This document shows, piece after piece, positions 7,637 to 38,859 of a DNA stretch of 56,713 nucleotides; position 1 is the first letter of the stretch, and each line of letters starts with the position of its first letter. The notes beneath the pieces were generated by a model, which did no database searches, had not been told where the DNA came from, and saw nothing but the letters and a program-made list of their open reading frames with translations. The stretch comes from a virus, in IMG/VR virus record IMGVR_UViG_3300037722_000354, positions 1-56,713 of that record; one strand, given 5' to 3'. The translations under genes were made by a program, and so were the position numbers.

Positions 7637-7667
7637 CGTGGGCTCCGTTTTGCTGTTGGTAGGAAAA

Positions 7668-22395: not shown

Positions 22396-22398
22396 TTA

Positions 22399-22908: not shown

Positions 22909-22941
22909 GAAATCACCTATCGTTGTTGAATGGAATTGGGC

Positions 22942-22963
22942 GGGAGGGGCCGAAGCCCCTCCC
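22942..22963 (-). terminator. Perfect 9-bp stem with a UUCG tetraloop downstream of the small capsid-adjacent gene
   Basis: Minus strand reads GGGAGGGGC-TTCG-GCCCCTCCC. The T-tract is weak, so this may be a partial terminator or an mRNA-stabilising hairpin. Confidence 0.5.
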
Positions 22964-22971
22964 GGACGTGA

Positions 22972-23244
22972 TTACGAGGACGTGGTAACGCTCGTGAGCG
23001 TGGCCGCCGAAGAAGCGGTTACAACACTCACAAACATCCACAGACTGCCCGTGAGCGGAGACGTGGTTTCCGCAACGAGCACTGCGTCGTGCGTTTTCAT
23101 GCCGAGCGCGTATCCGTTCGAGATGAAACCAGCCGCCGCAGCTTCGCCAGCAGTGTGTGTCGAGTTGTAGCTCCAGAGCTGCCGACCATCGCCAGCAAGA
23201 CCGCCAACGAGCAGTTCAGGAGGATTCGTGGAAGAATAAGCCAT
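22972..23244 (-). CDS. Small Ser/Thr-rich protein immediately after the capsid gene (decoration-protein candidate)
   Basis: 90 aa. C-terminus LWMFVSVVTASSAATLTSVTTSS. Followed by a strong hairpin. Confidence 0.55.
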   Translation of the reverse strand: MAYSSTNPPELLVGGLAGDGRQLWSYNSTHTAGEAAAAGFISNGYALGMKTHDAVLVAETTSPLTGSLWMFVSVVTASSAATLTSVTTSS

Positions 23245-23257
23245 TGTTCAATCCTCC

Positions 23258-24094
23258 TTATGACAACGCAGACGCCGAACCATCGTGCAACATCTGCACA
23301 ATGCCGGTGTTCTGCAATTTTGCGGTTCCAAAATAGCCGGACGCACGGACGAACCAGTACCCCTGTTCTTCGTCGAAACCAGCACCAATCTTGAGATTGT
23401 TTGTATCAAGAGCATGGCCGATTGCATTACGATGAAACAGGTAGCACTTCTCCGAAGACGTGCCGACACCGGTCAGGTTCGGGTGAACAATCCAGTTCAC
23501 GCCGTACCAACGCAACATGCGACGGGCGGGGCCAGTGAACGGCTGCACCATCACATAGTCACGCGATCCAAACTCAGTGAGTTGCATCATGAAACCGTAG
23601 AAGCTCGGCGTGATAACGCCGAACATATTATCTTCTTCCTGGACGGGCACCTCGGCATTGCCGAGATACGAAAGAGCCGTAGCAACTTTCGCAAGAGTTG
23701 CCGTCCCGGCAGTATCGTTGATCGTCGCAGTATCAAGCTGCGCAATAATGTCGGCGTCTCGTTTACGATTAATGACGCCTACGGTAGTGCGCTGCATGAT
23801 CGCGCGTTGATCGCCCTGACTCGCAAAAATGTTGAAGTCTGTCTTGCGAACCAGATCATGCCATTCCTGAAGGGTGGCACTGGTTTGTGTCAGATCGTCC
23901 GAGCGTGCGGCGATTAGGCCGGATACGCCACGGGTAACGGCAGTAGCGCCGCCAGAACCGGCAACAAGAAAGGTTGCCGTATTCCCGTTCCTGACAAACT
24001 CTTGGGCACAGCACGGCGCAAGATGTGATTGCTGTTCTTCAAACGCTGCAATCGTTTCCTGACGGTACTGCGTAACGAAGGCTGTATCAGCCAT
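23258..24094 (-). CDS. Major capsid protein
   Basis: 278 aa from the internal ATG at 24094 (the ORF extends to 24193). Position after portal and scaffold. N-terminal MADTAFVTQYRQETIAAFEEQQSHL... is typical of podovirus capsid proteins. Confidence 0.75.
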   Translation of the reverse strand: MADTAFVTQYRQETIAAFEEQQSHLAPCCAQEFVRNGNTATFLVAGSGGATAVTRGVSGLIAARSDDLTQTSATLQEWHDLVRKTDFNIFASQGDQRAIMQRTTVGVINRKRDADIIAQLDTATINDTAGTATLAKVATALSYLGNAEVPVQEEDNMFGVITPSFYGFMMQLTEFGSRDYVMVQPFTGPARRMLRWYGVNWIVHPNLTGVGTSSEKCYLFHRNAIGHALDTNNLKIGAGFDEEQGYWFVRASGYFGTAKLQNTGIVQMLHDGSASALS

Positions 24095-24280
24095 GTTAGC
24101 ACCTGATTGTTCATTGTTTTTCTCTGGTGCGTCTGCTTCGGTTTCCCACGGGGCATAAAGAGAGGGTTGGCGGCGAGCCTTGCGGCTGGCCACGCCTCCC
24201 GTTGCCGGGTAGGGCTAGGCTTCTGCGGTTTGTCTTGGTGGCAGCGCCGATTGCTCGGGTTGACTGCCGGTCACGCAATC

Positions 24281-25267
24281 TTACGCAGCGCGCGATTTAT
24301 TGCGGTCGCGTCGTGTAATAAGATCACGGTATTCTTGCTGGATGGACTCCGCTTTCGGTCCTCTCCAATAATCTGATCGCTGATCGCGCATTAGCTTTTC
24401 GATGTCGGTAATACGCGCCTCGCCACCGGCTGCATCGCCGCCGCCACCCAGATCAAGCGATCCGGCTGAATAGGTCCGCGCGGCCTGTGCCGCGAGCCTT
24501 ACGAAAAGTGGATGCGAGCCGAGCTTCGTTCCGTCCGCGAGCATGACGCCAGCTAGCTCCGGCCCCTTCTCGCCCATGACTTCGGCAATGAAGTTATTCC
24601 CGAGCGTGACGTTCTGCGTATATTCGTTACCCGGCCATTCGGTGCGAAGCTCGACAATTCGATCCTGCAATGCTTGATCGGCATGTTCGTGTAAATCCTG
24701 CAATTCCAGTTCGCGATTGGCAAAATACCAATTGGCCAGGTTCTGCGCGACCTTCGGTTCGATTGCATTTTCATGCGCGAATTTCTTGAAGGCGTCGAGT
24801 ACCGGCTTGTCTGCTTCCGAAACCGTGACTTCCTTCGGAGGCTCGACTGGATATTCCTCTGCCTTATCGGGGATACCGATTTCCTTGCGATACGCCGCCA
24901 CTTCGTCTGCGCTGGCTCCCTCCGGCAGACCGCGTTTAAGGAGCCCACTGTTGATTTTCTTTTCAGCTTCTGTGGCCCATTTGAGGACGCCGGAGGGATC
25001 GGTGAAACGCTGTAGCCGTTCAAGAACCTTCGTATCGTCGCCAGCCATCTTCTGCCGCCAGTCTTCCGGCCAAGTCGCCGTGGCTTGCGGCTGCTGTTGA
25101 CCGGAGTCCTCGACCTTCTTGCCGTCGCCCGCGACTATGGTGTCGATCTTGGCTTGCGTGGCCCCCGTTTCTTGCCCTTCGGCCACCCGCCCTTGCGCTT
25201 GACCGGGCTGCTGCTGAGATTGGCCGTCTGTTGCTGTGGCTGTTCCGTTGGCCTGTTCGTCCGCCAT
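24281..25267 (-). CDS. Scaffolding protein
   Basis: 328 aa, acidic and Gln/Ala-rich, predicted helical. Lies between the portal and capsid genes. Confidence 0.65.
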   Translation of the reverse strand: MADEQANGTATATDGQSQQQPGQAQGRVAEGQETGATQAKIDTIVAGDGKKVEDSGQQQPQATATWPEDWRQKMAGDDTKVLERLQRFTDPSGVLKWATEAEKKINSGLLKRGLPEGASADEVAAYRKEIGIPDKAEEYPVEPPKEVTVSEADKPVLDAFKKFAHENAIEPKVAQNLANWYFANRELELQDLHEHADQALQDRIVELRTEWPGNEYTQNVTLGNNFIAEVMGEKGPELAGVMLADGTKLGSHPLFVRLAAQAARTYSAGSLDLGGGGDAAGGEARITDIEKLMRDQRSDYWRGPKAESIQQEYRDLITRRDRNKSRAA

Positions 25268-25572
25268 TTCGGGTTTTCCTTTGGTGTCGTTTCTGGATTC
25301 AACACGCGATCCGCCGGGGCGAATGCGATCTTGCGCAATTGCAGGCCGGGAAATCTCCTGCCTTCGTGAAAGTCCGTGTCCCGCTGCCCGCCCAATTCGT
25401 CGGGGCGATAGGACAGGTCGTCAGCCGAGCAAAACCGCTCGACAATCAATTGAAATGCTTTCTTCTGTTGATCGGGACTTGCTTCGCCACGGGCGATATT
25501 GCGGATTGCGAATATCTCGTGGTTTTCCAGTTCGACCGGCGCGAACGCACGCCCGGTAATATCAATCTTCAT
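25135..25572 (-). CDS. Hypothetical protein between portal and scaffold
   Basis: 145-aa ORF. ATGA overlap with the portal stop. Its basic 3' tail overlaps the scaffold start by 133 nt. Confidence 0.45.
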   Translation of the reverse strand: MKIDITGRAFAPVELENHEIFAIRNIARGEASPDQQKKAFQLIVERFCSADDLSYRPDELGGQRDTDFHEGRRFPGLQLRKIAFAPADRVLNPETTPKENPKWRTNRPTEQPQQQTANLSSSPVKRKGGWPKGKKRGPRKPRSTP

Positions 25573-27227
25573 GCCGCCATCTGCGGATTCATGGCCTCGG
25601 TTACGGACTTGGAAGCCTCGGCAAGCGAACCGATTGATTCACCCGCTGCCTGTCCTTCAGCCAATGCCTGGGTGGCTGATTCCTGGTCTTCCCTCGCCTC
25701 ACGATTTTCCTGCACTTCGCCTTCCGAATGAACCCACTTCGACGGAGAGCCGGAACCCTTGATCGCGTCCGGCAATGCCGCTTCGTTATTGAAATGATCC
25801 GGCGCGCTCTTGTAAATCAGCGATGCCTTGCCGACGATTTCCAGATTGGCCATGTAGGTATGGACCTTGGCGCGCTCGATGGAATCCTGAAGCGGGTTAT
25901 TGAACTGGTAGATGATTTCCTTTCCGCGAAGCGGCTCAGGAATATCATCGACACTACCGAACGCCCCACGACGCATCAGAAAACCGAAACTCTCGTCGAG
26001 TAACCCGCCGTTGTAATCCTGTTCGGATGGCTCGAATAACGGCGTGATCTCCCGGATGAATTGCTCGTACAGGATGGAAGTCTCGTATGCGGTTTTGTCG
26101 CCCTGCTCAGGCAGGCCCAATTTATTCGTGAACCACGCCTTGGCGATCAGGGATTGCGTCCGCATGACCATTTCAAGGCCAAGCCCAACGTCCTTGCCCA
26201 GATCGATTGGCCTGACAGACGCACCAAATCTCTCGTCATAATCCCTATCAACATAGGTTATGCCGCCCGAATATAAATTGATTTCGCTTTTCAGCGCTTC
26301 TTCCGTGGCGATAAGCGGAGGATCAACACGCTTCTCACCCGCCTCGATCAGCACCCGCGCCATCGATTGAATCTGCCTAGCGTCCGGGAGCGACACCATC
26401 GCAGCCGGTGAAAACCCGTAAGGAGACATTCCGAACGTTTCCCACCGGGGGACGACATAGCGGAACGAATCTAGCGGCTCGTGGGCGATGATCTGAGCAT
26501 GGTCCACGTCCACGAATATCGACACAAACGGCAACCGCTTGGAATTCGTCTTCTTGCCGATATAGTCGTAATCCTCGGCTGGCATCACACAGTGAATAAT
26601 CTTGAACTCGCGATCCGGTTCTTTCTCGCAGGCCGTCTTGATGTCCTGATGCAACTTGGCGTCGGTAAAACGCTGCTTCAATTTACGCGCGGTCACCTTC
26701 GCCTTGCGATAGAGCAGATCAACCTTTCCCTCGTAGTTCTCCATCCATGCGCAATCGCGAAAATGAAACACGCTCCACGACATTCCATCTTTCGTGGGAA
26801 GTTCATCCAGCATCAATATGGCATTGCCGAACGTTACATAATCGTGGTCTGCACGCTTCGTTGAGCGGACGAACTTCGCCCTCCGGTCATAGAGCGCGCG
26901 CCTGTGGACTTTCGTGGTGTATTCAAGAAACCTTTGGCTTTCGGTATTGTTGGCGATTTCCTCGTCATCGACCGTATGCAGGAACCATTGCTTGTCCCGT
27001 GGCCGAAGCATGGCCGCCTGTGCATCGCCCAATTCCCGCCTTGCCAGCACGGGAAACGAGTCGAACAGATGCGAGGCGAATTCATCACCAAGCTCAAGCG
27101 GGGTCGTGAAATCCGCGCGTTCTGGGTAGAAGTTCTCGGCCAGTTCCTGGCACAAAGAGTCCAGGTCCGCCTTGGTCGAAAACAGTCTTCCCGAACGTTC
27201 GAGAATTTCCTTGGCGTTATTATCCAA
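25569..27227 (-). CDS. Portal (head-tail connector) protein, T7 gp8-like
   Basis: 552 aa. Position after terL. N-terminal ...LCQELAENFYPERADFT... and the Gln/Ala-rich acidic C-terminus resemble T7-type connectors. Confidence 0.75.
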   Translation of the reverse strand: MDNNAKEILERSGRLFSTKADLDSLCQELAENFYPERADFTTPLELGDEFASHLFDSFPVLARRELGDAQAAMLRPRDKQWFLHTVDDEEIANNTESQRFLEYTTKVHRRALYDRRAKFVRSTKRADHDYVTFGNAILMLDELPTKDGMSWSVFHFRDCAWMENYEGKVDLLYRKAKVTARKLKQRFTDAKLHQDIKTACEKEPDREFKIIHCVMPAEDYDYIGKKTNSKRLPFVSIFVDVDHAQIIAHEPLDSFRYVVPRWETFGMSPYGFSPAAMVSLPDARQIQSMARVLIEAGEKRVDPPLIATEEALKSEINLYSGGITYVDRDYDERFGASVRPIDLGKDVGLGLEMVMRTQSLIAKAWFTNKLGLPEQGDKTAYETSILYEQFIREITPLFEPSEQDYNGGLLDESFGFLMRRGAFGSVDDIPEPLRGKEIIYQFNNPLQDSIERAKVHTYMANLEIVGKASLIYKSAPDHFNNEAALPDAIKGSGSPSKWVHSEGEVQENREAREDQESATQALAEGQAAGESIGSLAEASKSVTEAMNPQMAA

Positions 27228-27230
27228 GGA

Positions 27231-27431
27231 TCAGGTTCCCAACGACGTGCCGGAATACTGCGGCGCTTCGCCGGAGAGGATCGTCGATTGACGGCCTCCC
27301 CTTGCCTGCGACTGAAGCATACGGCGTCGGCGCTTCTCCTGAATCTCGGGGTCTTCCGGGTCGGGCATGGATACGGATTTCTGGGCTTTCGCGATTGCAC
27401 CCCCGCCAAATAGTTTGCTGATGCCGCTCAT
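27231..27431 (-). CDS. Small hypothetical protein between terL and portal
   Basis: 66-aa ORF, tightly packed. Confidence 0.45.
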   Translation of the reverse strand: MSGISKLFGGGAIAKAQKSVSMPDPEDPEIQEKRRRRMLQSQARGGRQSTILSGEAPQYSGTSLGT

Positions 27432-27434
27432 TTA

Positions 27435-29006
27435 TTATCTCCTTCTTCTTTTTTTCGAGCTGGAATAACCTAAATTCGCGAATTGCTGCTTGGGATGCCG
27501 AAACGACGATGACGCCTTGTGCAGATGTCTGGTCAGAACCTCTTGTCCCTCACTGAGGCACATCACCATCGCATCACCCTTGCCGGGCGAGCGACCGATG
27601 CGCTTCCTGATTTCTTCCTTGCTCTCAATCTGAATGCCGCGTGTCGTCAGCTTCCAGTGAGGCGTGGCAAGGTCCGCCCTGATTTCCGCACCGGGTGGCA
27701 ATGCAATGACAGACCCGCCCTCTTGATCCGGGTCCAGTTCCTCGCGCATTCGCCACCAAGCTTCCGCGCGCTTGTTCACAAACGATAGCTTGCCGTCTTT
27801 GGTCTTTGAGATTGATGTTGCCGCGCCATTAAATGCGTGATGATCAATCTCGTTATCCTTCAATCGAAGCGTGACAGCCCCGCCATATCCCCCGCCAACA
27901 TCGACAATCACCGGGGCATTGTGCCTGCGGTATTGAACGATCTTACCCGCCGCCCTTGATCCGTCCGCCGTTTCGTCGCCCTTGGCTGTCTGTGGTTCGG
28001 CAAACCAGCCCTGATGTCGCCAGATTAATTCTTCCGCGTCGTTCCCACCCCCGGCAGGATCGAGCGCCATCGAAGTCATGTTGCACTTCAGGTAGCCGTC
28101 CGATCTCCACCGAGACTGTGCGGCCATAACCCACGCGGTAGGAATGACCTGAAACGGATTATCCCTCAGGCTCGCGTCGAACCGTCCGTCCTTGTAAGCC
28201 GCTCTTAGTTCGGGCGGCAGCGCCGCTAGGACCGAGCCGTAGTTCGTTTCGGCAAGATCGGGGTTGTCGGCAAGCTCTGCCGGTATGAACGTTCTCGACC
28301 GGGCCATGATCTGCTCGTCGTCGATTAAATGCGGACCCGGCCCGTCAACTTCGGTGTCTTCCCCCTTGATTGTCGTGAACCAGCGCAACTCGCCCGGCTT
28401 GGCCGGATTCGGATGATTGGGATCGACCCACGGTGCCCAGTATTTCAGGACCCACAAGCCTTCTGGCGTTGTCGGAGGGTTGCCAGCGGCAACAATTCGG
28501 CACCTTTGCCGTTTATCCGCTGCGCGATTCCAACCAGCAATGAAGCGGTATTGCGTCTCGGTGAAGTCGGAAACCTCGTCGAACGCGATCAGGTCGTGCG
28601 GCGAGCCCTTGAACTTCTGCTTGTCGTCTTCGTGCTGGCAGCCGTTGACATCGATAATCCTGCCATCTATCCGCCAGATGTTATCCTGCCCGTTCCACCC
28701 GTCGCGGCTTCCGAGGATTTCGACGAACCGTTCGACCAGCTTTGTGGCCTCTTTGTTTGTTCGCCTTAGAACCAGCGACTTTTGGTGCTCGGTCAAGGAC
28801 AGGCCCACGATCAGGTCCGTCTTTCCGCCCCCCGCCTGCCCGCCGTAGAACAGTTCGTCCGCCGTTGAGAAGTACGCTTCCGTTTGCGGGCCGGGGTTCG
28901 GCTTCCACTTGTACCGGGCGTTCGCCTTCACCGCCGCCTGGATTGCCGCTTCCTTCTCCTTCACCGGCAGGGCGTTCAACGCCTGTAGAACTTCCTCTAG
29001 CTGCAT
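27435..29006 (-). CDS. terL: Terminase large subunit
   Basis: 523 aa. Walker A FYGGQAGGGKTD and Walker B DLIAFDEVSD, followed by a nuclease-domain-sized C-terminal half. Confidence 0.9.
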   Translation of the reverse strand: MQLEEVLQALNALPVKEKEAAIQAAVKANARYKWKPNPGPQTEAYFSTADELFYGGQAGGGKTDLIVGLSLTEHQKSLVLRRTNKEATKLVERFVEILGSRDGWNGQDNIWRIDGRIIDVNGCQHEDDKQKFKGSPHDLIAFDEVSDFTETQYRFIAGWNRAADKRQRCRIVAAGNPPTTPEGLWVLKYWAPWVDPNHPNPAKPGELRWFTTIKGEDTEVDGPGPHLIDDEQIMARSRTFIPAELADNPDLAETNYGSVLAALPPELRAAYKDGRFDASLRDNPFQVIPTAWVMAAQSRWRSDGYLKCNMTSMALDPAGGGNDAEELIWRHQGWFAEPQTAKGDETADGSRAAGKIVQYRRHNAPVIVDVGGGYGGAVTLRLKDNEIDHHAFNGAATSISKTKDGKLSFVNKRAEAWWRMREELDPDQEGGSVIALPPGAEIRADLATPHWKLTTRGIQIESKEEIRKRIGRSPGKGDAMVMCLSEGQEVLTRHLHKASSSFRHPKQQFANLGYSSSKKRRRR

Positions 29007-29739
29007 TCTGCTCCTGCATTCTTCCCAAGACGCCTACCGCATAAGGATGCTGGACATAGGTGTTGGCGTGATACGTGTTGTCGTCGAACGCACCCTTGAT
29101 GAACATATATTCGTCGCGGTTCGCAGCCTGCCTCGATTCGCATTCCTTCAGCCGCTGGAATAGTTCCACCTTGCGCACGTCGAGCTTGATCCTGTGCGGG
29201 TTATGTTCCGAATACCCGTACATCTGTTGCGGATAGAACAGGTCTGACTCGGGCGGAATGTCGATGAATATGCCGCGCTTCATCGCTTCCCATATGAAAA
29301 ACTGACAGGCGGGCTTTTGTCGTTCGTATTCTTCTGTTGCCGCCATATCGACGCCGCGCCAGCCAAGGACGCCTAAATCTTCTTCCTCAAGGGCAAGTGC
29401 TGCCATGTAGCTGAGCGAGCTTTGCCAGAAGAACGGCCCGTACTTGTCGAGCATCTTTTCAATCGGATAGCGCCGGGAGTTTGGAATCTCCGGGTGCGGC
29501 TCGATCATCCAGACCGGCCCTTTGAACTCGGTCAGGAATTTCCAGTACGGATCGGACTTCTTGAACCACGGGAAGTCTTCCGTGACCCGATGCAGTTCAA
29601 ACCAGACATCAACGCGCTTACCGGCTATTGCGGTAGCGCATCCGGGAGAGCAACCCCAAAGCAACCAGCTTGGGTCATTGTGCGGGGCCAAGCGTATCGA
29701 CGATGGGGCGCTCCCCAGAAGGCAAATGCGTTTCGACAT
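28681..29739 (-). CDS. Candidate Maf/GT42-like (nonulosonate) transferase; the 3' 325 nt overlap terL out of frame
   Basis: N-terminal RICLLGSAPSS...VDVWFELH and central SLSYMAALALEEEDLGVLGWRGVDM echo the GNGPSL and G-x-D motifs of CstII/DUF115 enzymes. The tail after about aa 245 is Arg/Gly/Pro-rich low complexity. Confidence 0.35.
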   Translation of the reverse strand: MSKRICLLGSAPSSIRLAPHNDPSWLLWGCSPGCATAIAGKRVDVWFELHRVTEDFPWFKKSDPYWKFLTEFKGPVWMIEPHPEIPNSRRYPIEKMLDKYGPFFWQSSLSYMAALALEEEDLGVLGWRGVDMAATEEYERQKPACQFFIWEAMKRGIFIDIPPESDLFYPQQMYGYSEHNPHRIKLDVRKVELFQRLKECESRQAANRDEYMFIKGAFDDNTYHANTYVQHPYAVGVLGRMQEQNAARGSSTGVERPAGEGEGSGNPGGGEGERPVQVEAEPRPANGSVLLNGGRTVLRRAGGGRKDGPDRGPVLDRAPKVAGSKANKQRGHKAGRTVRRNPRKPRRVERAG

Positions 29740-29748
29740 CGAGCCTCG

Positions 29749-30186
29749 TTACGATGAGATGACTGCGGCGGACGAGCCGTGATGATTGATAACGAGCCAG
29801 ATCGTGCTGATGTCCTGCAATTCCACACCGGCGCCCGCCGCCGTGAACAGGATGTTGAACATCGACGAGCCAGCCGTGCTCGTGATTGAGCCATTGCCGG
29901 ACGAGATAGTTACGGTCTGTTGGGTTGATGCGCTGTTTGCGACAATGCGAACTCTGCGGCCCGAACCGCTCGGCGTTGGAAGCGTGTAGGTCGCTGCGCT
30001 CGCTGCCGCGATCAGGTTGAGGCCGTAGTCTTTCAACGTGTCGGTCGTGGTCGTGAAAGTCGTATTCTCGCTCCAGCCCGCGATGTTCGTATCGAGCAGA
30101 GCATCGTTGACGGGATCGTGAACCTTGATTGCGCCGGTTGCCGGGTCGTACCCAAACATACGGCCATAGATGGAATGGTAAGCCAT
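29749..30186 (-). CDS. Ser/Thr-rich small protein (virion/decoration candidate)
   Basis: 145 aa with TTFTTTTDT and SASTQQTVTISSGNGSITSTAGSS tracts. The C-terminus IWLVINHHGSSAAVISS resembles that of ORF 22972-23244. Confidence 0.5.
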   Translation of the reverse strand: MAYHSIYGRMFGYDPATGAIKVHDPVNDALLDTNIAGWSENTTFTTTTDTLKDYGLNLIAAASAATYTLPTPSGSGRRVRIVANSASTQQTVTISSGNGSITSTAGSSMFNILFTAAGAGVELQDISTIWLVINHHGSSAAVISS

Positions 30187-30260
30187 TGTTGTTGTTCCCT
30201 GTTTTTGCTTATTGAGTCGTGCTTATTGATGGGCCGGGATGGCCATGCGCGTTTGTCTTA

Positions 30261-30283
30261 CAAAACCGCCCGCGCGGTGCGGC
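30261..30283 (-). terminator. GC-rich hairpin plus T-run directly after the stop of gene 30284-30670
   Basis: Minus strand reads TAA-GCCGCACCGCGCGGGCGG-TTTTG. Confidence 0.4.
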
Positions 30284-30670
30284 TTATAGGAATGTATGGA
30301 TCGGGGCGAGGAACGCCGTAAGCGACGTGGCCGTGGTCTGCGCCACCGCTCCGGTCGAACCGTCCGAAACCGGCTGAATGTACTGAAAGCCCGCGAATAT
30401 ATCCGGGCTGATGTAATGAACTTGGCTTGACGTGGCGGTGACAATGAATTGCGAGTTTGTCGAATTCATCAGGGTGTACATTGCCGATGTGGAATTGCCG
30501 ACCTTGAACGAGAGATACGCGGAATCCCAAACGGACGAGAGTGCAATCCCCGTAAGGGTCAGGCCCTTGGTGTCGAGCACGTCGCCAAGCCCGTCAGCCG
30601 CCGTGGATATTGCAAGCGATACGGACTGCTTCAGGCTTGGAACCTGTTGAGTCGGATAGACAATAGCCAT
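30284..30670 (-). CDS. Small Ser/Thr-rich protein with a strong RBS (abundant structural-protein candidate)
   Basis: 128 aa. RBS ccaaggagaaaaaataATG. Followed by a terminator-like hairpin. Confidence 0.55.
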   Translation of the reverse strand: MAIVYPTQQVPSLKQSVSLAISTAADGLGDVLDTKGLTLTGIALSSVWDSAYLSFKVGNSTSAMYTLMNSTNSQFIVTATSSQVHYISPDIFAGFQYIQPVSDGSTGAVAQTTATSLTAFLAPIHTFL

Positions 30671-30767
30671 TATTTTTTCTCCTTGGGGCCGTCAGTCTTC
30701 ACGACAAACGACCCATGCCCTGCGGCTCCTTTGGAACCGCTCACGACGAATTTCACCACTCGCGCAG

Positions 30768-31913
30768 TTAATTGTGATTCCAGATTGCATCTTTGGTCCA
30801 TTGCCCGTCACCGTTCTTTGCCCACACGCGCGGGTCGCGGAATTGATCCGCTGTTTGTTCAAACTTGGTTCTCGTCATGCCGACATAATCCAGCCAGCGA
30901 ACCAGATCGCTCGGGACTACATGATCGTATTGGCGGATTAACTCGATGCCTTCCGCCCGCGTCATTTCACCGGCACGAATATCCCGGCAAACATGATCGG
31001 TGCAGCGCCCGTAACCGAACTTGATGTATTTCAAATAGTCATGCACGCCATCGTGCATATTGTTCAGGTTGCAGTCCCGCTTGTAGGTACGGTCCATGGG
31101 AGCCGGATTCTGCTCGAATCCGTATTGCTCCTGCATCAATCTCGATTGACGGTTCTGATTCCAGACGAAGTAATTGGAAATGAACACGCCGCGCAGTTCG
31201 ATCCGCTCGATCTCCGCATCGCTCGGGTACTTCGCCCATTGCAAATCCCGTTCGGTCAGCCCTTCCTCGCCAAGGAAGTCAGTCCATTCATAGCCGTGCT
31301 GTAGATGCTCCTTGCGGAAGCGGGACGTGTATTCAACCATGTCCCGGTAGGAGTGCATTCCCCCAAGGTCCATGAAACCATGCTCGCCCCAGATAACGAG
31401 CTGTATCTGGTATTTGACCGCGATCTGCGTCGGGAAGCAGTTAATTCCCATGTGAGCGTGCATGTCGGTATCGCCCATCTTGCGAAGGCCAACACGGTTC
31501 AGCTTTTTCAATACCTCAATTGAGGGCGTGAAATTGATGTAGTCGCAATTGAAACAGTCTTTCATGCGCTGGATATTGCGCTTGCCGACTTCCGTCTCGT
31601 TGTTCTCGTTGTAGCAGACTAGGAGCGGGTTCATGCCGTATTGCTTGACGGTGTGAATCTGCCAGTAGCTGTCCTTGCCGCCCGAAACCGGGATTAAACA
31701 GTCGTAGCCGACCGGCCTGCGGTATTCGTCGCACAGTTCCGCGAACTGCTTCTCGCGTGCAGTCCAGTCTATTCCCTGTTTTTCCTCTGCCGTCCTGCAC
31801 CCGGAACAGACTTGCTCATTGTCGAAATGAACCGGCGCGGCGGCGATCATCGGGTAGCAGCAACGCTGGCAGTACGATTGCCTAGGCGGCGATGTCGTAG
31901 TCGAACCGGACAT
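30768..31913 (-). CDS. N-acetyl-sugar amidotransferase (PseA/WbuX-type PP-loop enzyme)
   Basis: 381 aa. N-terminal Cys pairs CQRCC...CSGC and the PP-loop LIPVSGGKDS, as in the acetamidino-forming LPS/flagellin-glycan amidotransferases. Confidence 0.7.
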   Translation of the reverse strand: MSGSTTTSPPRQSYCQRCCYPMIAAAPVHFDNEQVCSGCRTAEEKQGIDWTAREKQFAELCDEYRRPVGYDCLIPVSGGKDSYWQIHTVKQYGMNPLLVCYNENNETEVGKRNIQRMKDCFNCDYINFTPSIEVLKKLNRVGLRKMGDTDMHAHMGINCFPTQIAVKYQIQLVIWGEHGFMDLGGMHSYRDMVEYTSRFRKEHLQHGYEWTDFLGEEGLTERDLQWAKYPSDAEIERIELRGVFISNYFVWNQNRQSRLMQEQYGFEQNPAPMDRTYKRDCNLNNMHDGVHDYLKYIKFGYGRCTDHVCRDIRAGEMTRAEGIELIRQYDHVVPSDLVRWLDYVGMTRTKFEQTADQFRDPRVWAKNGDGQWTKDAIWNHN

Positions 31914-32583
31914 TAAAACCTTGCCGTCTTAGGTATTGCTTCGCCCGTTTGTACGAGGACTCCACGAAGTGGAAGATGTTACCTGCGGCCACTGCGTGGG
32001 CTCCGGATATGAGGGCGTCTCGGAAATGTGAATAGTCCCCGCAGCCTCCCGCTGCCACCACGGGGATCGTGATTCCGCCCGCAACTCGCTCAATTGCTGC
32101 ACAATCAAAGCCAATTGCCGTTCCATCGCGCTCAATCGCGTGGAGAAAGATTTCTCCCGCGCCCTTGGCTTCCGCTTCTTGCGCTGTTTCTGCATTTCCA
32201 TCATCCACCGAAACCACAACCGCCTGTGAGCCGAACTTGTCCGCTATGCTCTCGATCAGGCCGGGTATCTTCGCACCCCTGCCGATCAATACCTTGTCCG
32301 CACCGTTCCTGATTAATCTTGCCGCATCGTCGAGCGACCGCACATTCCCGCCAACGGTGAGCGGCATGAAAGCCCTGTCTGCAATTGCACGGAGCAATTC
32401 ATCCCCGATGCCGGGGCCGTCCCTCGTTATGTCAATGTAGCAAACCTCGTCTGCCTGCCATTCGTCGTAACGGGCCAACTCGTCGAACGGATTGCCTATG
32501 ACCTTGAACTCACTGCACCGCTCGCTTCTGACGATCCGCCCGTTCATTAGAAAGATGACGGGGATAATTCGCGTCGTCAGCAT
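31882..32583 (-). CDS. HisF-like (imidazole glycerol phosphate synthase cyclase-type, WbuZ-like) protein
   Basis: 233 aa from the ATG at 32583. RIIPVIFLMNGRIV...LTVGGNVRS...PVVAAGGCG is the (beta/alpha)8 HisF pattern. Overlaps both neighbours. Confidence 0.7.
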   Translation of the reverse strand: MLTTRIIPVIFLMNGRIVRSERCSEFKVIGNPFDELARYDEWQADEVCYIDITRDGPGIGDELLRAIADRAFMPLTVGGNVRSLDDAARLIRNGADKVLIGRGAKIPGLIESIADKFGSQAVVVSVDDGNAETAQEAEAKGAGEIFLHAIERDGTAIGFDCAAIERVAGGITIPVVAAGGCGDYSHFRDALISGAHAVAAGNIFHFVESSYKRAKQYLRRQGFNVRFDYDIAA

Positions 32584-33203
32584 TTCTCCACCACAATCAA
32601 CGCCGCCGGGTTCTCCGGGTTCGCATCCAAGCCCCACAATTCGCACTTGGGCTCATATCCCAATTCCAGAATTGCAGCGGGCAACCCCCGCACATAGCCA
32701 AACATATCCATCCTTGCCCGCGCGCTTTCGTGCGCCAGTTCATAGGACGGCTCGACCATCACAAGTGCCTTGCGGGTCACTCGTAATAGCTCCCTCAATA
32801 TCTCCATCTCACGTCCGCCGTTCGGTTCAATCGCGTGATAGGTCGTAACCACGTCGAACGACTCGCTACCCAACGGGATTGCATCCAATGGCGACTGGAT
32901 GAACATTCCAGTCAGGCCGTTGTCCCGCATGTGCTTACGTGCGATGTCGAGCCTCGGAAGCGATATATCAAAACCTAGAACTCGTCTTGGCTTGACCTTC
33001 ATTGCCAGCAGAAGCGGCACAAGCGTTGTCGCCTCGCCCGTTCCTGCGTCCAATAGATTAACCGGCTCATATCGCTCAATGACGCTGGCGAGCTTCTTGC
33101 CTATTTCGGCCTTTTGATCGGCGTAAGTCTGGTTGGCTAATGCTGCGATGTAGGTTCCGGCTTGCAGGTCGTAGGACTGTTCAATCTCGGCGGTGGTTCT
33201 CAA
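32577..33203 (-). CDS. Class I SAM-dependent methyltransferase
   Basis: 208 aa. LLDAGTGEATT (motif I-like) and FDVVTTYHAIEP. The TTG start overlaps the stop of the upstream micro-ORF. Confidence 0.6.
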   Translation of the reverse strand: MRTTAEIEQSYDLQAGTYIAALANQTYADQKAEIGKKLASVIERYEPVNLLDAGTGEATTLVPLLLAMKVKPRRVLGFDISLPRLDIARKHMRDNGLTGMFIQSPLDAIPLGSESFDVVTTYHAIEPNGGREMEILRELLRVTRKALVMVEPSYELAHESARARMDMFGYVRGLPAAILELGYEPKCELWGLDANPENPAALIVVEKC

Positions 33204-33307
33204 GACGTTGCCCGCACCACAACAAAGATTAACGAAGCGATTGAAATGCCGAGGGCGAAAAAAGCGAGCGCAAGCGCCACCATGACGGCCCCGTATGCGT
33301 CGCTCAC
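33200..33307 (-). CDS. Micro-ORF encoding a single-TM peptide (35 aa)
   Basis: A GTG start forms GTGA with the PhyH stop, and its TGA overlaps the TTG start of the methyltransferase. Peptide (M)SDAYGAVMVALALAFFALGISIASLIFVVVRATS. Confidence 0.35.
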   Translation of the reverse strand: MSDAYGAVMVALALAFFALGISIASLIFVVVRATS

Positions 33308-34080
33308 GGCTTCACCACCAGATTAGCCCGCCCGCAATCCCGCCCGACATAAGGCGTCACATCAAACTCCCCGCTCAATGTCAAATCATCCTCCGGCGTC
33401 CACACCCGCGTAACGCACGCGAAGCTATAACCATCCGACGTGTTCGGGTTGGAACGATGAATCAAATTCCTGTCGAAGACAATCAAATCCCCGCGCTTGC
33501 TCTCGCAAACATGCTCAGGGAATTCAGCCACGAAATTCTCAGGCACCTCGAATTGACGGAAAGCGTTCTGTCCCTCTTGATATTCCGCAAACGGCCAGTC
33601 CCGCTTATGGCTCCCGAGCTTCACGCTCATCACCCCGTTGTCCTTGGTCTTGTCGGCAAATACCGGAAACCAGATGTTCAGGAAGCGGCGGCGCTTGGGA
33701 TAGTAATGCGCCTCGCTATGCCATTTATAAAGCAGCCGTGTTGTGTTCGGGCGGTTGATAAGCAAGCCCGGCCCGCTGATTAAGAGATTCCTCGTACTGC
33801 ATTGCAAGAGGCCAGCGCACGTCTCGCGGAATTGCTCACCGAATAACTCCCCAACCCAAGGCGAGAGTGGCAGCATCTTCTGCACCTGATAGAGTGCTTC
33901 CTTGTCCTTGGCTTCCATCGCCTCGCAGATCGCCGGTAGATCGTCCGGCAAATCGCTGTAGTCAGCTATCTTGTGGGCCTGGAGCGAATAAAGCCTTGTG
34001 ATCGATTGCTCGAATTCAGTCAGATCATCCAGATCGAAGAAGCGCTTGATATGGGTAAAGCCCCTGTCGGCAAAACTCAC
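33304..34080 (-). CDS. Phytanoyl-CoA dioxygenase (PhyH)-family Fe(II)/2-oxoglutarate oxygenase
   Basis: 258 aa. WHSEAHYY (H-x-D/E facial-triad context) and a distal NLIHRS His. Size and pattern fit PhyH. Confidence 0.55.
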   Translation of the reverse strand: MSFADRGFTHIKRFFDLDDLTEFEQSITRLYSLQAHKIADYSDLPDDLPAICEAMEAKDKEALYQVQKMLPLSPWVGELFGEQFRETCAGLLQCSTRNLLISGPGLLINRPNTTRLLYKWHSEAHYYPKRRRFLNIWFPVFADKTKDNGVMSVKLGSHKRDWPFAEYQEGQNAFRQFEVPENFVAEFPEHVCESKRGDLIVFDRNLIHRSNPNTSDGYSFACVTRVWTPEDDLTLSGEFDVTPYVGRDCGRANLVVKP

Positions 34081-34709
34081 GTCTTGCCTTTCTCAAATAA
34101 CCAATAATGTAAATTATCCAACCCCGTCTCTCGCTTCCAAATAAATCCATAACTCAAGCATTTCAAATCGGGAAAGCTATCCATCCAGAACGAACCGAAG
34201 TCCCGCTTGAACAGCTTGTCCTCGTTATACCGATAAGGAATGCTCACCGGCGTATCGTTGAAATATTCAATGCAGGCGACCCACCGGGAGGCACACCGAT
34301 GGATCGACCTGCACGAGTCAGCCAATTCATGGGGAGGGACATGAATCAGGACGCCGGAAGTGAAAGCCAGTTCGGCTACATTGTCGGGAAACCCGATATT
34401 CTGTGCCGTCCCGTCGATGACCTGTTCGCACAGCCCGGTTAGTTCAAGGTCTGTCCTTGCCTGTTCGTTCGGTTCGACCGCGTAGAACTTGGGCCTTCCA
34501 TCCAACAGGTAATTGAGCGATTTGATATTGAGGCCGGTATTGGACCCGACTTCCAGAATACTCCCCGGCACCTTGCCAAGCGCAAGCATTATGCGAGCCC
34601 ACAAGAGATTATAGGCTGGCAGGTAGTCCTCATCGTTCCTGATCGAATATGAGTTTCCGAAACTCCCGCGCCAGAATTCCTCTTGCGGTGTAATGCCGTT
34701 TGCCTTCAC
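34077..34709 (-). CDS. Pseudaminic-acid-biosynthesis-associated methylase family protein
   Basis: The GTG at 34709 makes a GTGA overlap (the ORF extends to 34742). QEEFWRGSFGNSYSIRN...ILEVGSNTGLNIKSL matches the family pattern FW.g.FG..Y..RN ... iLE.G.N.G.NL. Confidence 0.65.
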   Translation of the reverse strand: MKANGITPQEEFWRGSFGNSYSIRNDEDYLPAYNLLWARIMLALGKVPGSILEVGSNTGLNIKSLNYLLDGRPKFYAVEPNEQARTDLELTGLCEQVIDGTAQNIGFPDNVAELAFTSGVLIHVPPHELADSCRSIHRCASRWVACIEYFNDTPVSIPYRYNEDKLFKRDFGSFWMDSFPDLKCLSYGFIWKRETGLDNLHYWLFEKGKT

Positions 34710-34960
34710 AGTTTGCGCGCCTTCAGTTCGCCGCCTTCCCATGTGACCGCGTGGGTTTCACCAACCCAACCGCGCGGGAGTATGGCATCATGAAGCGCAA
34801 TCTCAAGCTGGCGAACGCGGTTTTCCCAATGACCCCGCTCATAGTTCAATCGCTGTATGGCGTGTGTAACCATCGGCCTAGTCACTGCTTCGCCACGGCC
34901 AGCCCAATCGTGAAGTTCCTGTAAATGGTCGTCCAGCTCATACTTGAAAACCTCAGGCAT
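34706..34960 (-). CDS. Hypothetical small protein within the sugar cluster
   Basis: 84 aa from the ATG at 34960 (8-nt overlap with the PseI-like stop). No motif recognised. Confidence 0.45.
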   Translation of the reverse strand: MPEVFKYELDDHLQELHDWAGRGEAVTRPMVTHAIQRLNYERGHWENRVRQLEIALHDAILPRGWVGETHAVTWEGGELKARKL

Positions 34961-35699
34961 GAATTGCCTCGACCATCTGCCTGAATTCGTCCGGCTCCAA
35001 TGAGAACGCAGCGTCAGGCCCGCCATTCGAGCGAGATAGCGTTATGTGCTTCTCAATGATCTGGGCGTTGTAGTTCTTGACCGCGCTGACCGCCGCTTCA
35101 ATACCGGGCGTATGATCGGAGAAGCCTATGCGCCTCGACGGCAAGGCCCTATGCAACTCCCTTATTCTGTGAAGCATCGCTTCCTCAATCTTGCACGGGT
35201 AGCGTGAGACACAATGCAAGTATGAAATATCGTTATCCGGTAGCTCTGGTATATCCTTGCCGGGTAGTGAAATTACGATTGGCTTGCCGGTATCTGCCGC
35301 CGACATAATCAGCCGCCCGTCGCCCGCCTCCATCGCACTGATCTTGTACGCAGGGCACCCGAGCGTTTCGAGAAACTCAATATCCTTCACATCGAATACC
35401 GACGAGAAGACCTGAATTCCAATATCCCGCCCGTATTCAAATAGCTTGGGAAACCATTCCCTTGGCGTGTGCGTCTCGCGGTACAGGTCCAGCAGATTGC
35501 GCCCGTCCCACAATCCGCCCGACAGCACCTTATCCTTGCCGCCCCTGCGTTCGGCCAATCGTTCTGGATCGAAACATTGCAGCTTGGCAGCGTCAGCGCC
35601 CGCATCCTTCGCGGCCCGGATCAATGTCAATGCGTTCGTGAACTGCCCGCGATGCTCGCCGCTTAGCTCGGCAATGATAAACGGCTTAGCGAAGCGCAT
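34953..35699 (-). CDS. pseI: Pseudaminic acid synthase-like (NeuB-family nonulosonate synthase) without a SAF domain
   Basis: 248 aa. FIIAELSGEH...AAKLQ...AYKISA...GFSDHT... is the NeuB TIM-barrel pattern. It ends before the usual C-terminal SAF/antifreeze-like domain. Confidence 0.7.
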   Translation of the reverse strand: MRFAKPFIIAELSGEHRGQFTNALTLIRAAKDAGADAAKLQCFDPERLAERRGGKDKVLSGGLWDGRNLLDLYRETHTPREWFPKLFEYGRDIGIQVFSSVFDVKDIEFLETLGCPAYKISAMEAGDGRLIMSAADTGKPIVISLPGKDIPELPDNDISYLHCVSRYPCKIEEAMLHRIRELHRALPSRRIGFSDHTPGIEAAVSAVKNYNAQIIEKHITLSRSNGGPDAAFSLEPDEFRQMVEAIHA

Positions 35700-36093
35700 A
35701 GGTTTCCTGAATCAGCTTGAAGCCCTGATCCTTGAAGAACTCGATGCTCCGGGAATTCCTGGGCGAGACGTTCGCCAGCATCTTGCCCGGCCAGTATTTG
35801 CGCAATTGGGCCAATGCCTCTGCCCCATAGCCCTTGCCCGCGTGCTTCTGGAACAGGAACAGCCCGACCTCTCTCTGCTTGCTCAGATAGATAGAGCCTA
35901 CAATCTCATCATCGTTGTGGATCAGATACCAAGCTTTGTACGGGACGGAATTCACGAACTCGACGTGCTGCTCATAGCTCGGCATGGAGCAATGGCTGAT
36001 GCTTTGGTCCGCCGTGCGTTCGGCCAATAGCTCGTAGAGAATGCGGCAGGTCTGTTCGGTAGGACCGCATTTGTAGATGTTGCGCAGATTCAT
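35686..36093 (-). CDS. pseH: GNAT N-acetyltransferase (PseH-like)
   Basis: 135 aa. ...IVGSIYL...KHAGKGYGAEAL...SIEFFKDQGFKL contains the GNAT Q/R-x-x-G-x-G/A acetyl-CoA motif (HAGKGYG). Sits between the PseF-like and PseI-like genes. Confidence 0.6.
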   Translation of the reverse strand: MNLRNIYKCGPTEQTCRILYELLAERTADQSISHCSMPSYEQHVEFVNSVPYKAWYLIHNDDEIVGSIYLSKQREVGLFLFQKHAGKGYGAEALAQLRKYWPGKMLANVSPRNSRSIEFFKDQGFKLIQETYALR

Positions 36094-36725
36094 GCGGCTT
36101 GGCGGGCCTGCATGAATTCCGCCAATCGCTTAATATCCTCTGCATAGTCAATGGTATATCGGTCGTCGGTCATTTTGCGCAGCGACGACAATTCAGCTGT
36201 CTCGCAGTTGCTCTGCATCCAAGAAGTGACGTGCTCCCGATCATATGGGTCAGTAGCTTCCGTGTTTGCCTGCGCAAGCGCACGCATAGTAAAGGCCTCA
36301 CAATCATAGCCGCGTGGCCACGTCCGCCTCGGATACACGTTGCTCGCGTAGTCCACGCACAACGCAAAACGAAGGGCTATTACGCGGTCACATAGAAAAG
36401 GCTCAATCAATGGGCAGTCGCCAGTAATGCGAACAATAACATCGACGTCACTAAGCCCAAAAGACTCCGCCGCATTATAGAACCGCGTCAGAACGTCATT
36501 CTCATCGCACTGGTCATACCAAGCGCGGAAGTCGCATTCGTCAATGACAGGCTGTAGTGCGTCTGCGTCAGCATATGGTGCCGCTACGCAATAATGGTCC
36601 GCTTTAATCTGTTTCGCCCTCGTCAGCACATGCCATAGCACTGGATGGCCGCATAGCTCAGCCATGACCTTTCCGGGGAAACGCTTGGAGCCAAGTCTTG
36701 CTTGAACTATGACGGCGGTCCTCAT
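36090..36725 (-). CDS. pseF: Cytidylyltransferase (PseF/SpsF-type CMP-nonulosonate synthetase)
   Basis: 211 aa. N-terminal AVIVQARLGSKRFPGKV is the signature of acylneuraminate/SpsF-type cytidylyltransferases. Confidence 0.7.
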   Translation of the reverse strand: MRTAVIVQARLGSKRFPGKVMAELCGHPVLWHVLTRAKQIKADHYCVAAPYADADALQPVIDECDFRAWYDQCDENDVLTRFYNAAESFGLSDVDVIVRITGDCPLIEPFLCDRVIALRFALCVDYASNVYPRRTWPRGYDCEAFTMRALAQANTEATDPYDREHVTSWMQSNCETAELSSLRKMTDDRYTIDYAEDIKRLAEFMQARQAA

Positions 36726-37306
36726 CGGAACAACTCCACCTGACTAAGATCAGGATAGTCACTGTTCGGCAGCGGCTCGTTGTTCTTGGGCAGGATTGCC
36801 AGTCTCGTTAAACCTTCCGCAGCATCCCTCGGCATCATGTACGCATGATAGCCAAGCACGTCGAACGTGGACTCGCCTCGCTCACTGCGTCCGTCAAATC
36901 TAGCCTTGCGTAGCCATTCGTCGGCTTTGGGATCGTCGTGCAGGATCGCCCCGCCCTGTCCAACCGACAGATGTTTGCTCCAGTGAAACGACAGGCACAT
37001 CATCCCACCAAGGTACATGCCGCTCGTTAGCAACCGCGCATAGTCAAAGATCGGATATGGATAGAGCTGATAGCCGCCAACCCATTCGTGGTCCCGAAAC
37101 TTAACCTTCCCGCCCACGTTTAATATGCTCATAGGCACGCCGACATAAGTCCGCTTCGGTATTTCTACCTCGTCAACCTTATGCCATTTGCACGCCAACA
37201 ATAATGCCATCGTGCAGGACGTAGTGGCAACCGCGTAAGGAGCACCGGTATATTCGCACAGCGCCCGCTCGAACATGCGGACCACTTCAAATGGATCGCA
37301 GGACAT
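36722..37306 (-). CDS. pseC: Truncated-size DegT/DnrJ/EryC1-type PLP aminotransferase (PseC-like)
   Basis: 194 aa. AVATTSCTMALLLA...EVEIP and SFHWSKHLSVGQGGAI (PLP-lysine context SF..K....GeGG). About half the normal length of the family. Confidence 0.55.
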   Translation of the reverse strand: MSCDPFEVVRMFERALCEYTGAPYAVATTSCTMALLLACKWHKVDEVEIPKRTYVGVPMSILNVGGKVKFRDHEWVGGYQLYPYPIFDYARLLTSGMYLGGMMCLSFHWSKHLSVGQGGAILHDDPKADEWLRKARFDGRSERGESTFDVLGYHAYMMPRDAAEGLTRLAILPKNNEPLPNSDYPDLSQVELFR

Positions 37307-37418
37307 ATATCAGTTTAATCACTACGACCAATAACAAGACTCCGGCGATTGACCAGCAATAGATCAAATAGGATCGCCACGCGGGATCAGCCCAAATCTC
37401 TTTGATTTCGCGAATCAT
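37287..37418 (-). CDS. Micro-ORF encoding a single-TM peptide (43 aa)
   Basis: The ATG forms ATGA with the PseB-like stop, and the ORF overlaps the PseC-like start by 20 nt. Peptide MIREIKEIWADPAWRSYLIYCWSIAGVLLLVVVIKLIYVLRSI. Confidence 0.4.
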   Translation of the reverse strand: MIREIKEIWADPAWRSYLIYCWSIAGVLLLVVVIKLIYVLRSI

Positions 37419-38254
37419 ATCGTCTCCAATGCGCGGGTTAATTCAGGAACCGCCATCCTACGGGCGGCATCACTCGAATTGCCATCGCACATTGCTTCGT
37501 GCTGTTTCTCATATTTGGGCAGGCCAATAACGTTAATCTGCTTCCCCATCGCCTCTGCAAGATCGGCCAGTCGGTAAGCAGGCAGCGTCGGGATATTCAA
37601 CTCCCCGCCCTTCATTGTCTCAATCGTCTTGATTACCAGATCAATCGCTTCGTCCATCAGCATCCAGAACCTGGTACAGTCAGGATCGGTCACGGGGACC
37701 ACGCCGTTCATCCCGCGCCATCTTGGAATTACCGAGCCCTGCGAGCCAGCGACGTTTCCATATCTCGTGACAGCGAATATCGGCCCGTCCTCGCCCCGCG
37801 TATTGTTGGCGTTCAGGAACAGGCTTTCAGCCAATGCCTTGGTCTGGCCGTAAGGACTCACCGGCTGATATGCCTTGTCGGTGCTTAGTGCGACGACCTT
37901 CTGAACCCCGGCATCCTGGGCGGCTTCAATGACGTTCATGGCTCCGTGAACGTTCGTCTTCACCATTTCTCCGGGATTGTACTGCCCGACCTCGATACGC
38001 TTTAGTGCGGCGGCGTGTACGACCAGATCGACTCCACTAAAAGCACGCCTAAGCCTATCCCTATCGCGCACGCACCCGAGTAAATAACGAACTCGACTAT
38101 CATTGATATCATCGGCCATCTCGGCTTGCTTGTGTTCGTCCCTCGATAGAACAGCTACACGCCTTGGCTTGTGGTCGCGCAATAATCTCTTGACGAATGC
38201 CCTGCCGAAACTGCCCGTGCCACCTGTAATCAGGACCGATTGGCCGTCGATCAA
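37415..38254 (-). CDS. pseB: UDP-GlcNAc 4,6-dehydratase (PseB/FlaA1/CapD-type short-chain dehydratase)
   Basis: 279 aa. VLITGGTGSFG...VHAAALK...STDKA...YGQTK...RYGNVAGSQGSV follows the PseB sequence pattern closely. The TTG start overlaps the terS-like stop (cATTGA). Confidence 0.8.
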   Translation of the reverse strand: MIDGQSVLITGGTGSFGRAFVKRLLRDHKPRRVAVLSRDEHKQAEMADDINDSRVRYLLGCVRDRDRLRRAFSGVDLVVHAAALKRIEVGQYNPGEMVKTNVHGAMNVIEAAQDAGVQKVVALSTDKAYQPVSPYGQTKALAESLFLNANNTRGEDGPIFAVTRYGNVAGSQGSVIPRWRGMNGVVPVTDPDCTRFWMLMDEAIDLVIKTIETMKGGELNIPTLPAYRLADLAEAMGKQINVIGLPKYEKQHEAMCDGNSSDAARRMAVPELTRALETI

Positions 38255-38589: not shown

Positions 38590-38859
38590 TGCTAGCAATC
38601 CTAAATTATTGTGTTGTCTAAGCCCTATCGTCTCGATGATGGGGGATGGGGATTGTTGGAACACATTTGATTTCGGAACGAATCCTTCACGCACCCTTCC
38701 GGGGCGGGATAGACCAAATCATAGGCATATTACTTTGCCAACCTCTCAGCGCATATCGCCATGCCTGAGACGCGGGCTCTCAGACATTTAGTCCTTTGTA
38801 CTCAGTGCCTGGCTGCTATCAATTCTTCACCGCTCATTCCGAGCGGAGGAGAAACGAAA

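Follow-up and report, generated by a model that had tools for sequence, protein, structure and literature searches.

The 56,713-nucleotide IMG/VR record IMGVR_UViG_3300037722_000354, analysed here over its full length (the window), is a podovirus-like phage genome, and the tyrosine-integrase homologue that it carries at positions 112-1182 (plus strand) marks the phage as temperate. Its minus strand contains a cluster for the biosynthesis and tailoring of a pseudaminic-acid-type (Pse) sugar, followed by four genes, p43, p128, p145 and p352, and then by the gene for the large terminase (TerL; Table 1). These four genes most likely constitute a late-expressed accessory cassette that is joined to the Pse cluster just upstream of TerL. 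Two of them, p128 and p145, encode small Ser/Thr-rich proteins, and a preliminary description had proposed that these, together with a third small protein (p90) encoded directly after the major capsid gene, are sugar acceptors on the virion surface. Our analysis suggests that p145, in particular, is a credible candidate site of sugar attachment to the phage's own particle. Both small open reading frames (ORFs), and all the peptides that had been quoted, are present on the minus strand. They do lie between the sugar genes and the gene named as a candidate transferase, with the WbuX amidotransferase gene and p352 as the flanks; the micro-ORF p43, which had been overlooked, is also there. From TerL onwards the minus-strand late genes continue with a 66-amino-acid (aa) gene, portal, scaffold, major capsid protein, p90 and p169, and then with tail tubular proteins A and B and the internal virion proteins.

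Table 1. Features of the late region and of related loci (positions in the window unless another locus is named)
Feature	Position	Strand	Basis
Pse-type biosynthesis and tailoring cluster	30768-38254	-	Pfam, NCBIfam
p43, conserved 43-aa micro-ORF	30670-30801	-	Protein alignment
p128 ribosome-binding site AAGGAG, inside p43	30679-30684	-	Conserved in all relatives
p128, 128-aa Ser/Thr-rich jelly-roll protein	30284-30670	-	Conserved ORF, profile search, AlphaFold2
p128-p145 spacer	30187-30283	-	100% identical to related UViG
p145, 145-aa Ser/Thr-rich, low-charge, all-beta protein; best acceptor candidate	29749-30186	-	Conserved ORF, model
p352, enzyme-like; candidate nonulosonic-acid transferase	28681-29739	-	NeuB association
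TerL (large terminase)	27435-29006	-	Late gene
Major capsid protein	23258-24193	-	Late gene
p90, small Ser/Thr-rich protein directly after the major capsid gene	22972-23244	-	phrog_18004 match
Perfect 10-bp stem with UUCG loop after p90	22941-22964	-	-23.8 kcal/mol, z -4.9
Ser/Thr-rich protein of about 110 aa, L101	11503-11859
Ser/Thr-rich protein of about 110 aa, L115	12049-12396
Ser/Thr-rich protein of about 110 aa, L102	8260-8589
Ser/Thr-rich protein of about 110 aa, L119	11700-12026

The Pse cluster encodes a PseB-like protein (Polysacc_synt_2 in Pfam), a DegT protein, a CMP-transferase (CTP_transf_3), a GNAT protein, a PseI-like NeuB and a Pse-associated methylase, and in addition PhyH, a methyltransferase, WbuZ/HisF and the WbuX amidotransferase. 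The best NCBIfam match of NeuB is PseI, below the equivalog cut-off; the Pse-associated methylase and WbuX exceed the cut-offs of their families. The cluster amounts to a complete supply of CMP-pseudaminic acid, though no PseG-like hydrolase was identified. From the cluster through p352 the late-strand genes are closely packed or overlapping. In the close relative UViG_3300037755_000177, a 53-kb IMG/VR genome (L089), DegT, CMP-transferase, GNAT, NeuB and the Pse methylase are missing (L089/L004 comparison, window 34080-37473), while PseB, PhyH, the methyltransferase, HisF, the amidotransferase, p128, p145 and p352 are retained; this phage may be reliant on host CMP-Pse.

The dense Ser/Thr content that drew attention to the three small proteins is confirmed. 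With 26.6% (p128), 25.5% (p145) and 27.8% (p90) Ser plus Thr (S+T), or 25-28% against a background of 12.7%, they are the three highest of the 30 proteins scored (binomial P = 2e-5, 2e-5 and 1e-4, respectively), and all three contain very few charged residues. The putative fibres p414 and p466 are likewise rich in these residues (21-22%). The claimed similarity between the carboxy termini of p145 and p90 does not hold up under alignment, since BLASTP gives an E-value of 0.42, on an 8-residue segment other than the claimed one, hhalign a probability of 0.2% and a full-length shuffle test p = 0.10; the hand-picked tails give a shuffle p of 0.01 before correction for selection. p128 compared with p145 and p90 yields a BLASTP E-value of 1.5 or no match and hhalign probabilities below 1%, and across the protein pairs the shuffle tests range from p = 0.10 to 0.82. 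The three proteins are not one protein family, no pair being significantly similar, and they cannot be treated as a related set. In nucleotide sequence, UViG_3300037755_000177 has 94-100% identity to the window over p128, p145, their spacers and p90, and the neighbouring genes are far more diverged (amidotransferase 75%, capsid 73%, TerL 85%). This mosaic of identities implies that the three Ser/Thr-rich genes have a more recent common history than the genes that surround them.

Homologues of p128 and p145 occur in the same order in independent metagenome contigs, at 42-99% identity. The full order of amidotransferase, p43, p128, p145, p352 and TerL is kept in L001, L003, L007 and L089 as well as in the window, and parts of it are seen at the contig ends of L002 and L006. 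Relatives that have no sugar cluster (L090-L096; TerL about 77% and capsid protein 55-60% identical) lack both p128 and p145, and in L092 and L094 a terminase-small-subunit-like gene occupies their position. A megablast search with window 22000-31000 found no match, and no isolate phage is similar. A tblastn search with p128, p145, p90 and two distant p128 relatives found no match in 50,697 phage records, two scans of 185,579 species genomes revealed no prophage copies of the p128 or p145 genes, and, of two metagenome scans, the first gave no match and the second gave L097 alone.

The association of p352-like and p145-like genes with the sugar genes extends beyond the close relatives. We compared 80 NeuB-bearing IMG/VR loci, obtained from a scan with a NeuB alignment, with a control sample of 80 p128-family loci without sugar genes. 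A p352 profile matches 23 of the NeuB-bearing loci (E-values from 4e-79 to 1e-10) and none of the controls. The gene immediately upstream of a p352-like gene encodes a protein with at least 20% S+T in 14 of 18 cases, compared with 8.2% of 268 other genes (binomial p = 1e-12, uncorrected for phylogeny). In seven loci (L099, L100, L101, L102, L105, L119 and L124) this upstream gene belongs to the p145 family, and the NeuB proteins of these loci are just 39-49% identical to that of the window. In a second lineage, the gene for an HK97-type major capsid protein is followed by one for an unrelated protein of 260-280 aa (20-29% S+T) and then by a p352-like gene. The unrelated phage contig L097 carries a distant p352-like gene together with NeuB and a CMP-synthetase-like gene. 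The recurrent adjacency of p145-like and p352-like genes, along with the Ser/Thr-rich neighbours, therefore supports the view that p145 and p352 are an acceptor and transferase pair.

The conserved core of p352 spans about 265 aa (28945-29739). At its 3' end the ORF runs about 326 nucleotides into the start of TerL, in another frame (28681-29006); in L001, L006 and L089 the homologues are only 263-276 aa long, and the basic carboxy-terminal tail may be a read-through or frameshift artefact. Near its amino terminus p352 has a GxxPS-like motif that looks sialyltransferase-like by eye. The motif and the association with NeuB clusters are together the entire basis for regarding p352 as a candidate transferase. 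A p352-like N-domain protein is also encoded in L091, within a different glyco-type block upstream of TerL (707-9385) that contains, judged by eye from amino-terminal motifs, FAD oxidoreductase-like, glycosyltransferase-like and P-loop genes; directly before this block lie Ser/Thr-rich fibre-like genes of 417, 363, 81 and 353 aa.

The close family of p145 is small and limited to the sugar-cluster lineage. Its AlphaFold2 model is all-beta (pLDDT 68), and the top Foldseek match is the amino-terminal attachment region of the CBA120 tailspike TSP4 (E-value 6e-5, TMq 0.56), with T4 gp10 also among the structures that it resembles (E-values from 6e-5 to 2e-4, TMq 0.47-0.58). A SIYGRxxG motif is conserved at the amino terminus, and all members in the family alignment end in Ser or Thr. 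An amino-terminal motif that appeared by eye to be common to p145, p414 and p466 was not substantiated, as a hidden Markov model of the p145 amino terminus missed both p414 and p466. In other NeuB phages, the position of p128 before the p145-like gene is filled by Ser/Thr-rich proteins of about 110 aa (20-25% S+T; Table 1). We considered these as p128 homologues and rejected the idea (hhalign probability below 1%); they are positional analogues only.

p128 has few close homologues (56-98% identity), and an exhaustive profile search reaches 887 representative clusters at E-values of 1e-3 or below. Members of this wider family are mostly stand-alone proteins of about 120 aa, but the domain also forms the carboxy terminus of the fibre-like proteins P0042, P0048 and P0132 and occurs in three tandem copies in P0045, a phrog_437 virion structural protein. 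No family in Pfam or PHROGs covers p128, and neither p128 nor 62 family members match a Pfam carbohydrate-binding module (CBM) or discoidin family (CBM32, F5/8 type C). In a sample of 80 IMG/VR loci its members are encoded within structural modules, the gene following that for the portal in 37 of the 49 loci with a recognisable portal and elsewhere adjoining capsid, tail or fibre genes; in the window, p128 lies 6 kb from the capsid gene. The AlphaFold2 model is a confident jelly-roll (pLDDT 89). Its structural matches in the PDB are weak and generic (YomS, CBM32, discoidin/FVIII-C2, BC2L-C lectin and a cement protein; E-values from 2e-3 to 2e-2, TMq 0.37-0.57). The best of these, YomS, is itself without an assigned function, and the cement protein of KHP40 ranks only 21st (TMq 0.37). 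In BFVD the matches are uncharacterised phage proteins with TM-scores of up to 0.81. p128 is thus very probably a virion accessory protein, and its tie to the sugar genes is weaker than that of p145.

The expression signals of p128 had been read as those of an abundantly made protein, and here only the translational signal stands. The ribosome-binding site AAGGAG, with an 8-nucleotide spacer to the ATG, is indeed near-consensus and is identical in all relatives; strong sites precede only about 3-5 of the 52 minus-strand genes, p128, p90 and p66 included, and those of p128 and p90 (the latter a consensus AAGGAGG) are among the strongest in the window. The p43 stop codon overlaps the p128 start codon, which suggests translational coupling. 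p43 itself overlaps the 3' end of the WbuX gene and appears in the gene calls of L001 and L007 with a length of 49 aa; its alignment shows 46-79% identity, indels that stay in frame and the pattern ...VVSGSKGAAGHGSF..KT..PKEKK. The GC hairpin and T-run said to terminate the p128 transcript correspond to a 4-5 bp stem and four U at about 30262-30282. This structure folds no better than shuffled sequences (z -0.35), is not called by a terminator scan and is absent in L001 and L007, and the argument for abundance that was built on it fails with it. A GGCC-N5-GGCC hairpin in the same spacer (30230-30245), which occurs once in the window, is conserved.

Among the relatives, p90, unlike p128 and p145, is also present in those without the sugar cluster. 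It matches phrog_18004 (E-value 7e-15), and L091 and L092, which have no sugar cluster, contain positional and sequence orthologues with 15-18% S+T; p90 thus belongs to the core of the head module, shows no specific link to the sugar genes and is plausibly a decoration protein. The hairpin after its gene, previously described as a perfect 9-bp structure, is in fact a perfect 10-bp stem. No U-run follows it; instead of a classical terminator, it may represent an element for RNA stability or processing at the end of the transcript of the capsid gene and p90.

Several other features of the genome were noted. p414 and p466 (7668-8912 and 9648-11048, minus strand) are Gly/Ser/Thr-rich proteins with similar repetitive amino termini and almost no database matches, and are probably tail fibres or spikes. 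The carboxy terminus of p414 is weakly similar to phrog_4390; in L077, a gene of this phrog comes directly after one of the p128 family. A 147-aa ORF at 38251-38694 (minus strand) contains KPGQSGNPDGR, which we take to be like a motif of small-terminase-like (DUF5681-type) proteins; if this is correct, the sugar cluster and the cassette (about 10.8 kb) are located between the small and the large terminase genes. A tblastn search of the window with the small-terminase-like proteins of relatives found no match. In other lineages the order is a putative small terminase gene, a small Ser/Thr-rich gene, a p145-like gene, a p352-like gene and TerL. The carboxy terminus of the capsid protein is uninformative, as carriers and non-carriers of the sugar cluster differ there by only three residues.

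How might the cassette work? The Pse cluster would provide a CMP-activated, tailored Pse. The p352-like enzyme, which travels with nonulosonic-acid genes, would then place this sugar on Ser/Thr residues of the protein encoded directly upstream, here p145 and possibly also p128, and the glycoprotein would be built into the surface of the particle. That a phage-made CMP-Pse derivative is moved in this way onto an upstream Ser/Thr-rich protein that is assembled into the particle is the interpretation that we favour, and we hold it tentatively, as a real possibility that falls somewhat short of an even chance. The genes, their conservation, the composition and folds of their products and the gene-pair association across lineages are seen directly, and to these we add a transferase activity, an O-linkage and a virion incorporation that we infer. 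Both p145 and p128 are plausible as cytoplasmic, beta-rich, low-charge proteins of the virion type. A role in the virion is plausible for p128 because hundreds of phages encode members of its family within their head and tail modules and because the domain is found as a fusion in fibre-like and virion structural proteins, for p145 because its model resembles tailspike-attachment domains, and for p90 because it is the positional orthologue of a small post-capsid protein in related phages. The proposal of virion-surface acceptors can therefore be kept in part: a place in the virion is plausible for all three proteins, and the role of acceptor applies reasonably to p145, weakly to p128 and not specifically to p90. 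A bolder form of the interpretation, in which the widespread p352-like family represents a novel type of protein transferase for nonulosonic acids that O-glycosylates dedicated upstream Ser/Thr-rich virion proteins (p145 and perhaps p128 here, a decoration-type protein after the capsid gene elsewhere), leaving the particles coated with a tailored Pse from the phage's own pathway, is more doubtful, and we put it forward as conjecture.

A number of observations weigh against sugar transfer to these proteins. p352 has no match by sequence or profile in Pfam (even at E-values of up to 5), NCBIfam, PHROGs or the PDB, lacks a Maf (PF01973), GT-B or GT42 signature and scores a probability of only 0.5% in hhalign against Cst-II (sequence verified against PDB 2wqq). 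All attempts to identify it as a known transferase thus failed, and the label of candidate transferase that it had been given finds no detectable similarity to back it. The neighbour statistics are not phylogenetically independent, L091 has a p352-like gene with no NeuB within 21 kb, and the confidence of the p145 model is only moderate. For p128, nonulosonic-acid genes are present in none of the 80 p128-family loci, no member of the family occurs in the 80 other NeuB loci, and 17 of the 24 conserved Ser/Thr positions of the subfamily in the window's lineage are also Ser/Thr in the wider family, so that its composition is not sugar-specific. Furthermore, a temperate phage may modify the surface of its host. 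The main rival explanation combines several of these points, and states that p128, p145 and p90 are fibre, decoration or adaptor proteins of an ordinary sort, with the Ser/Thr richness typical of beta-rich surface proteins, and that Pse goes to other virion proteins or to host lipopolysaccharide, capsule or flagellin (lysogenic conversion, superinfection exclusion). The p128 family, which averages 20% S+T and is present in phages that lack sugar genes, the similar composition of p414 and p466, the p90 orthologues in relatives without the cluster, the integrase and the NeuB phages that lack p128 would all be accommodated. This explanation does not, however, account for the recurrence of the p145-like and p352-like pair in divergent NeuB phages or of a Ser/Thr-rich upstream neighbour in an unrelated lineage. 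In addition, the cluster lies inside a late, packaging-proximal operon rather than in a separately expressed moron, and inspection of the sequences by eye revealed no signal peptides or membrane glycosyltransferase genes near the cassette. On balance, we regard a purely structural role as rather unlikely.

Gene adjacency would fit a complex of an enzyme and its partner equally well, and p145 could assist the p352-like enzyme as a subunit that sets its specificity or its target, or as a chaperone, with the sugar going to another acceptor. The conserved pairing with short gaps would be expected of such a partner, and the SIYGRxxG motif might serve for interaction. In its composition, however, p145 is typical of surface beta proteins, and the neighbour in the second lineage, an unrelated Ser/Thr-rich post-capsid protein, is a better fit to a substrate encoded next door, which makes a non-substrate role improbable. 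It is slightly less probable still that p128 binds glycans, as a lectin, receptor-binding tip or capsid adhesin, instead of accepting them. Its jelly-roll does weakly resemble the CBM32, discoidin/FVIII-C2 and BC2L-C lectin folds, and the carboxy-terminal location of the domain in fibre-like proteins and its tandem copies in P0045 are consistent with binding; but these fold matches are generic, no Pfam CBM or discoidin family is matched, and a glycan-binding role leaves unexplained why p128 is restricted, among close relatives, to carriers of the sugar cluster.

The attachment of sugar to p145 by p352 can be compared with the O-pseudaminylation of flagellin, which is carried out by Maf/PseE or FlmG-type transferases in Campylobacter, Helicobacter, Caulobacter and others. 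As in that system, a CMP-Pse pathway with acetamidino and methyl tailoring genes (WbuX/WbuZ and the Pse-associated methylase) is present, the putative acceptor is a cytoplasmic, Ser/Thr-rich, surface-destined protein and a candidate transferase gene lies beside the pathway. The differences are that the carrier is a phage, that the candidate acceptors are virion-type beta proteins rather than flagellin and that p352 has none of the transferase signatures sought. A second comparison is with the virion glycosylation of mycobacteriophages Che8, Corndog and Myrna (Freeman et al. 2023, as summarised in PMC12363180). There, phage enzymes glycosylate the phage's own structural proteins and the glycosylation genes adjoin structural genes; the enzymes can be recognised as glycosyltransferases and act on capsid and tail-tube subunits. 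Adjacency of this kind is seen for the p352-like genes, which encode putative enzymes and follow a Ser/Thr-rich gene in 14 of 18 cases; in one lineage that gene comes after the capsid gene. In the window, by contrast, the sugar would be a nonulosonic acid from a full phage-borne pathway, the putative acceptors are dedicated small accessory proteins and the enzyme family is unannotated.

The candidate acceptors also have structural counterparts. In its size of about 120 aa, its eight-stranded beta-sandwich, its structural-module context and its putatively high expression, p128 is like small jelly-roll phage proteins, a group in which we place the cement proteins of the KHP40/BPP-1 type, YomS and the CBM32/discoidin modules. 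It differs from these in that its structural matches to them are weak, in belonging to none of their sequence families and in not being encoded next to the capsid gene in the window, although some members of its family do follow capsid or portal genes. Foldseek places the moderately confident p145 model on the XD attachment domains of CBA120 TSP4 and T4 gp10; unlike the XD and gp10-like domains of branched tailspikes, p145 is a stand-alone protein without sequence similarity to them and is encoded by a podovirus.

Until now, glycosylation of phage-particle proteins has been demonstrated mainly in mycobacteriophages, with ordinary glycosyltransferases, and protein-linked pseudaminic acid is known from flagella and pili. 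In our literature search, no Pse pathway carried by a phage and tied to virion proteins came to light. The gene-pair rule that emerges from our analysis, namely that a Ser/Thr-rich protein gene is followed by a p352-like gene in NeuB-bearing phages, provides concrete pairs for expression tests. If the proposed mechanism is true, the p352-like proteins would be a new transferase family, unlike Maf, FlmG and GT42, and a tailored nonulosonic acid that a phage makes and attaches to virion proteins dedicated to it would open a new route to the surface chemistry of virions, which bears on stability, adsorption, the evasion of recognition by hosts and predators, and immunogenicity.

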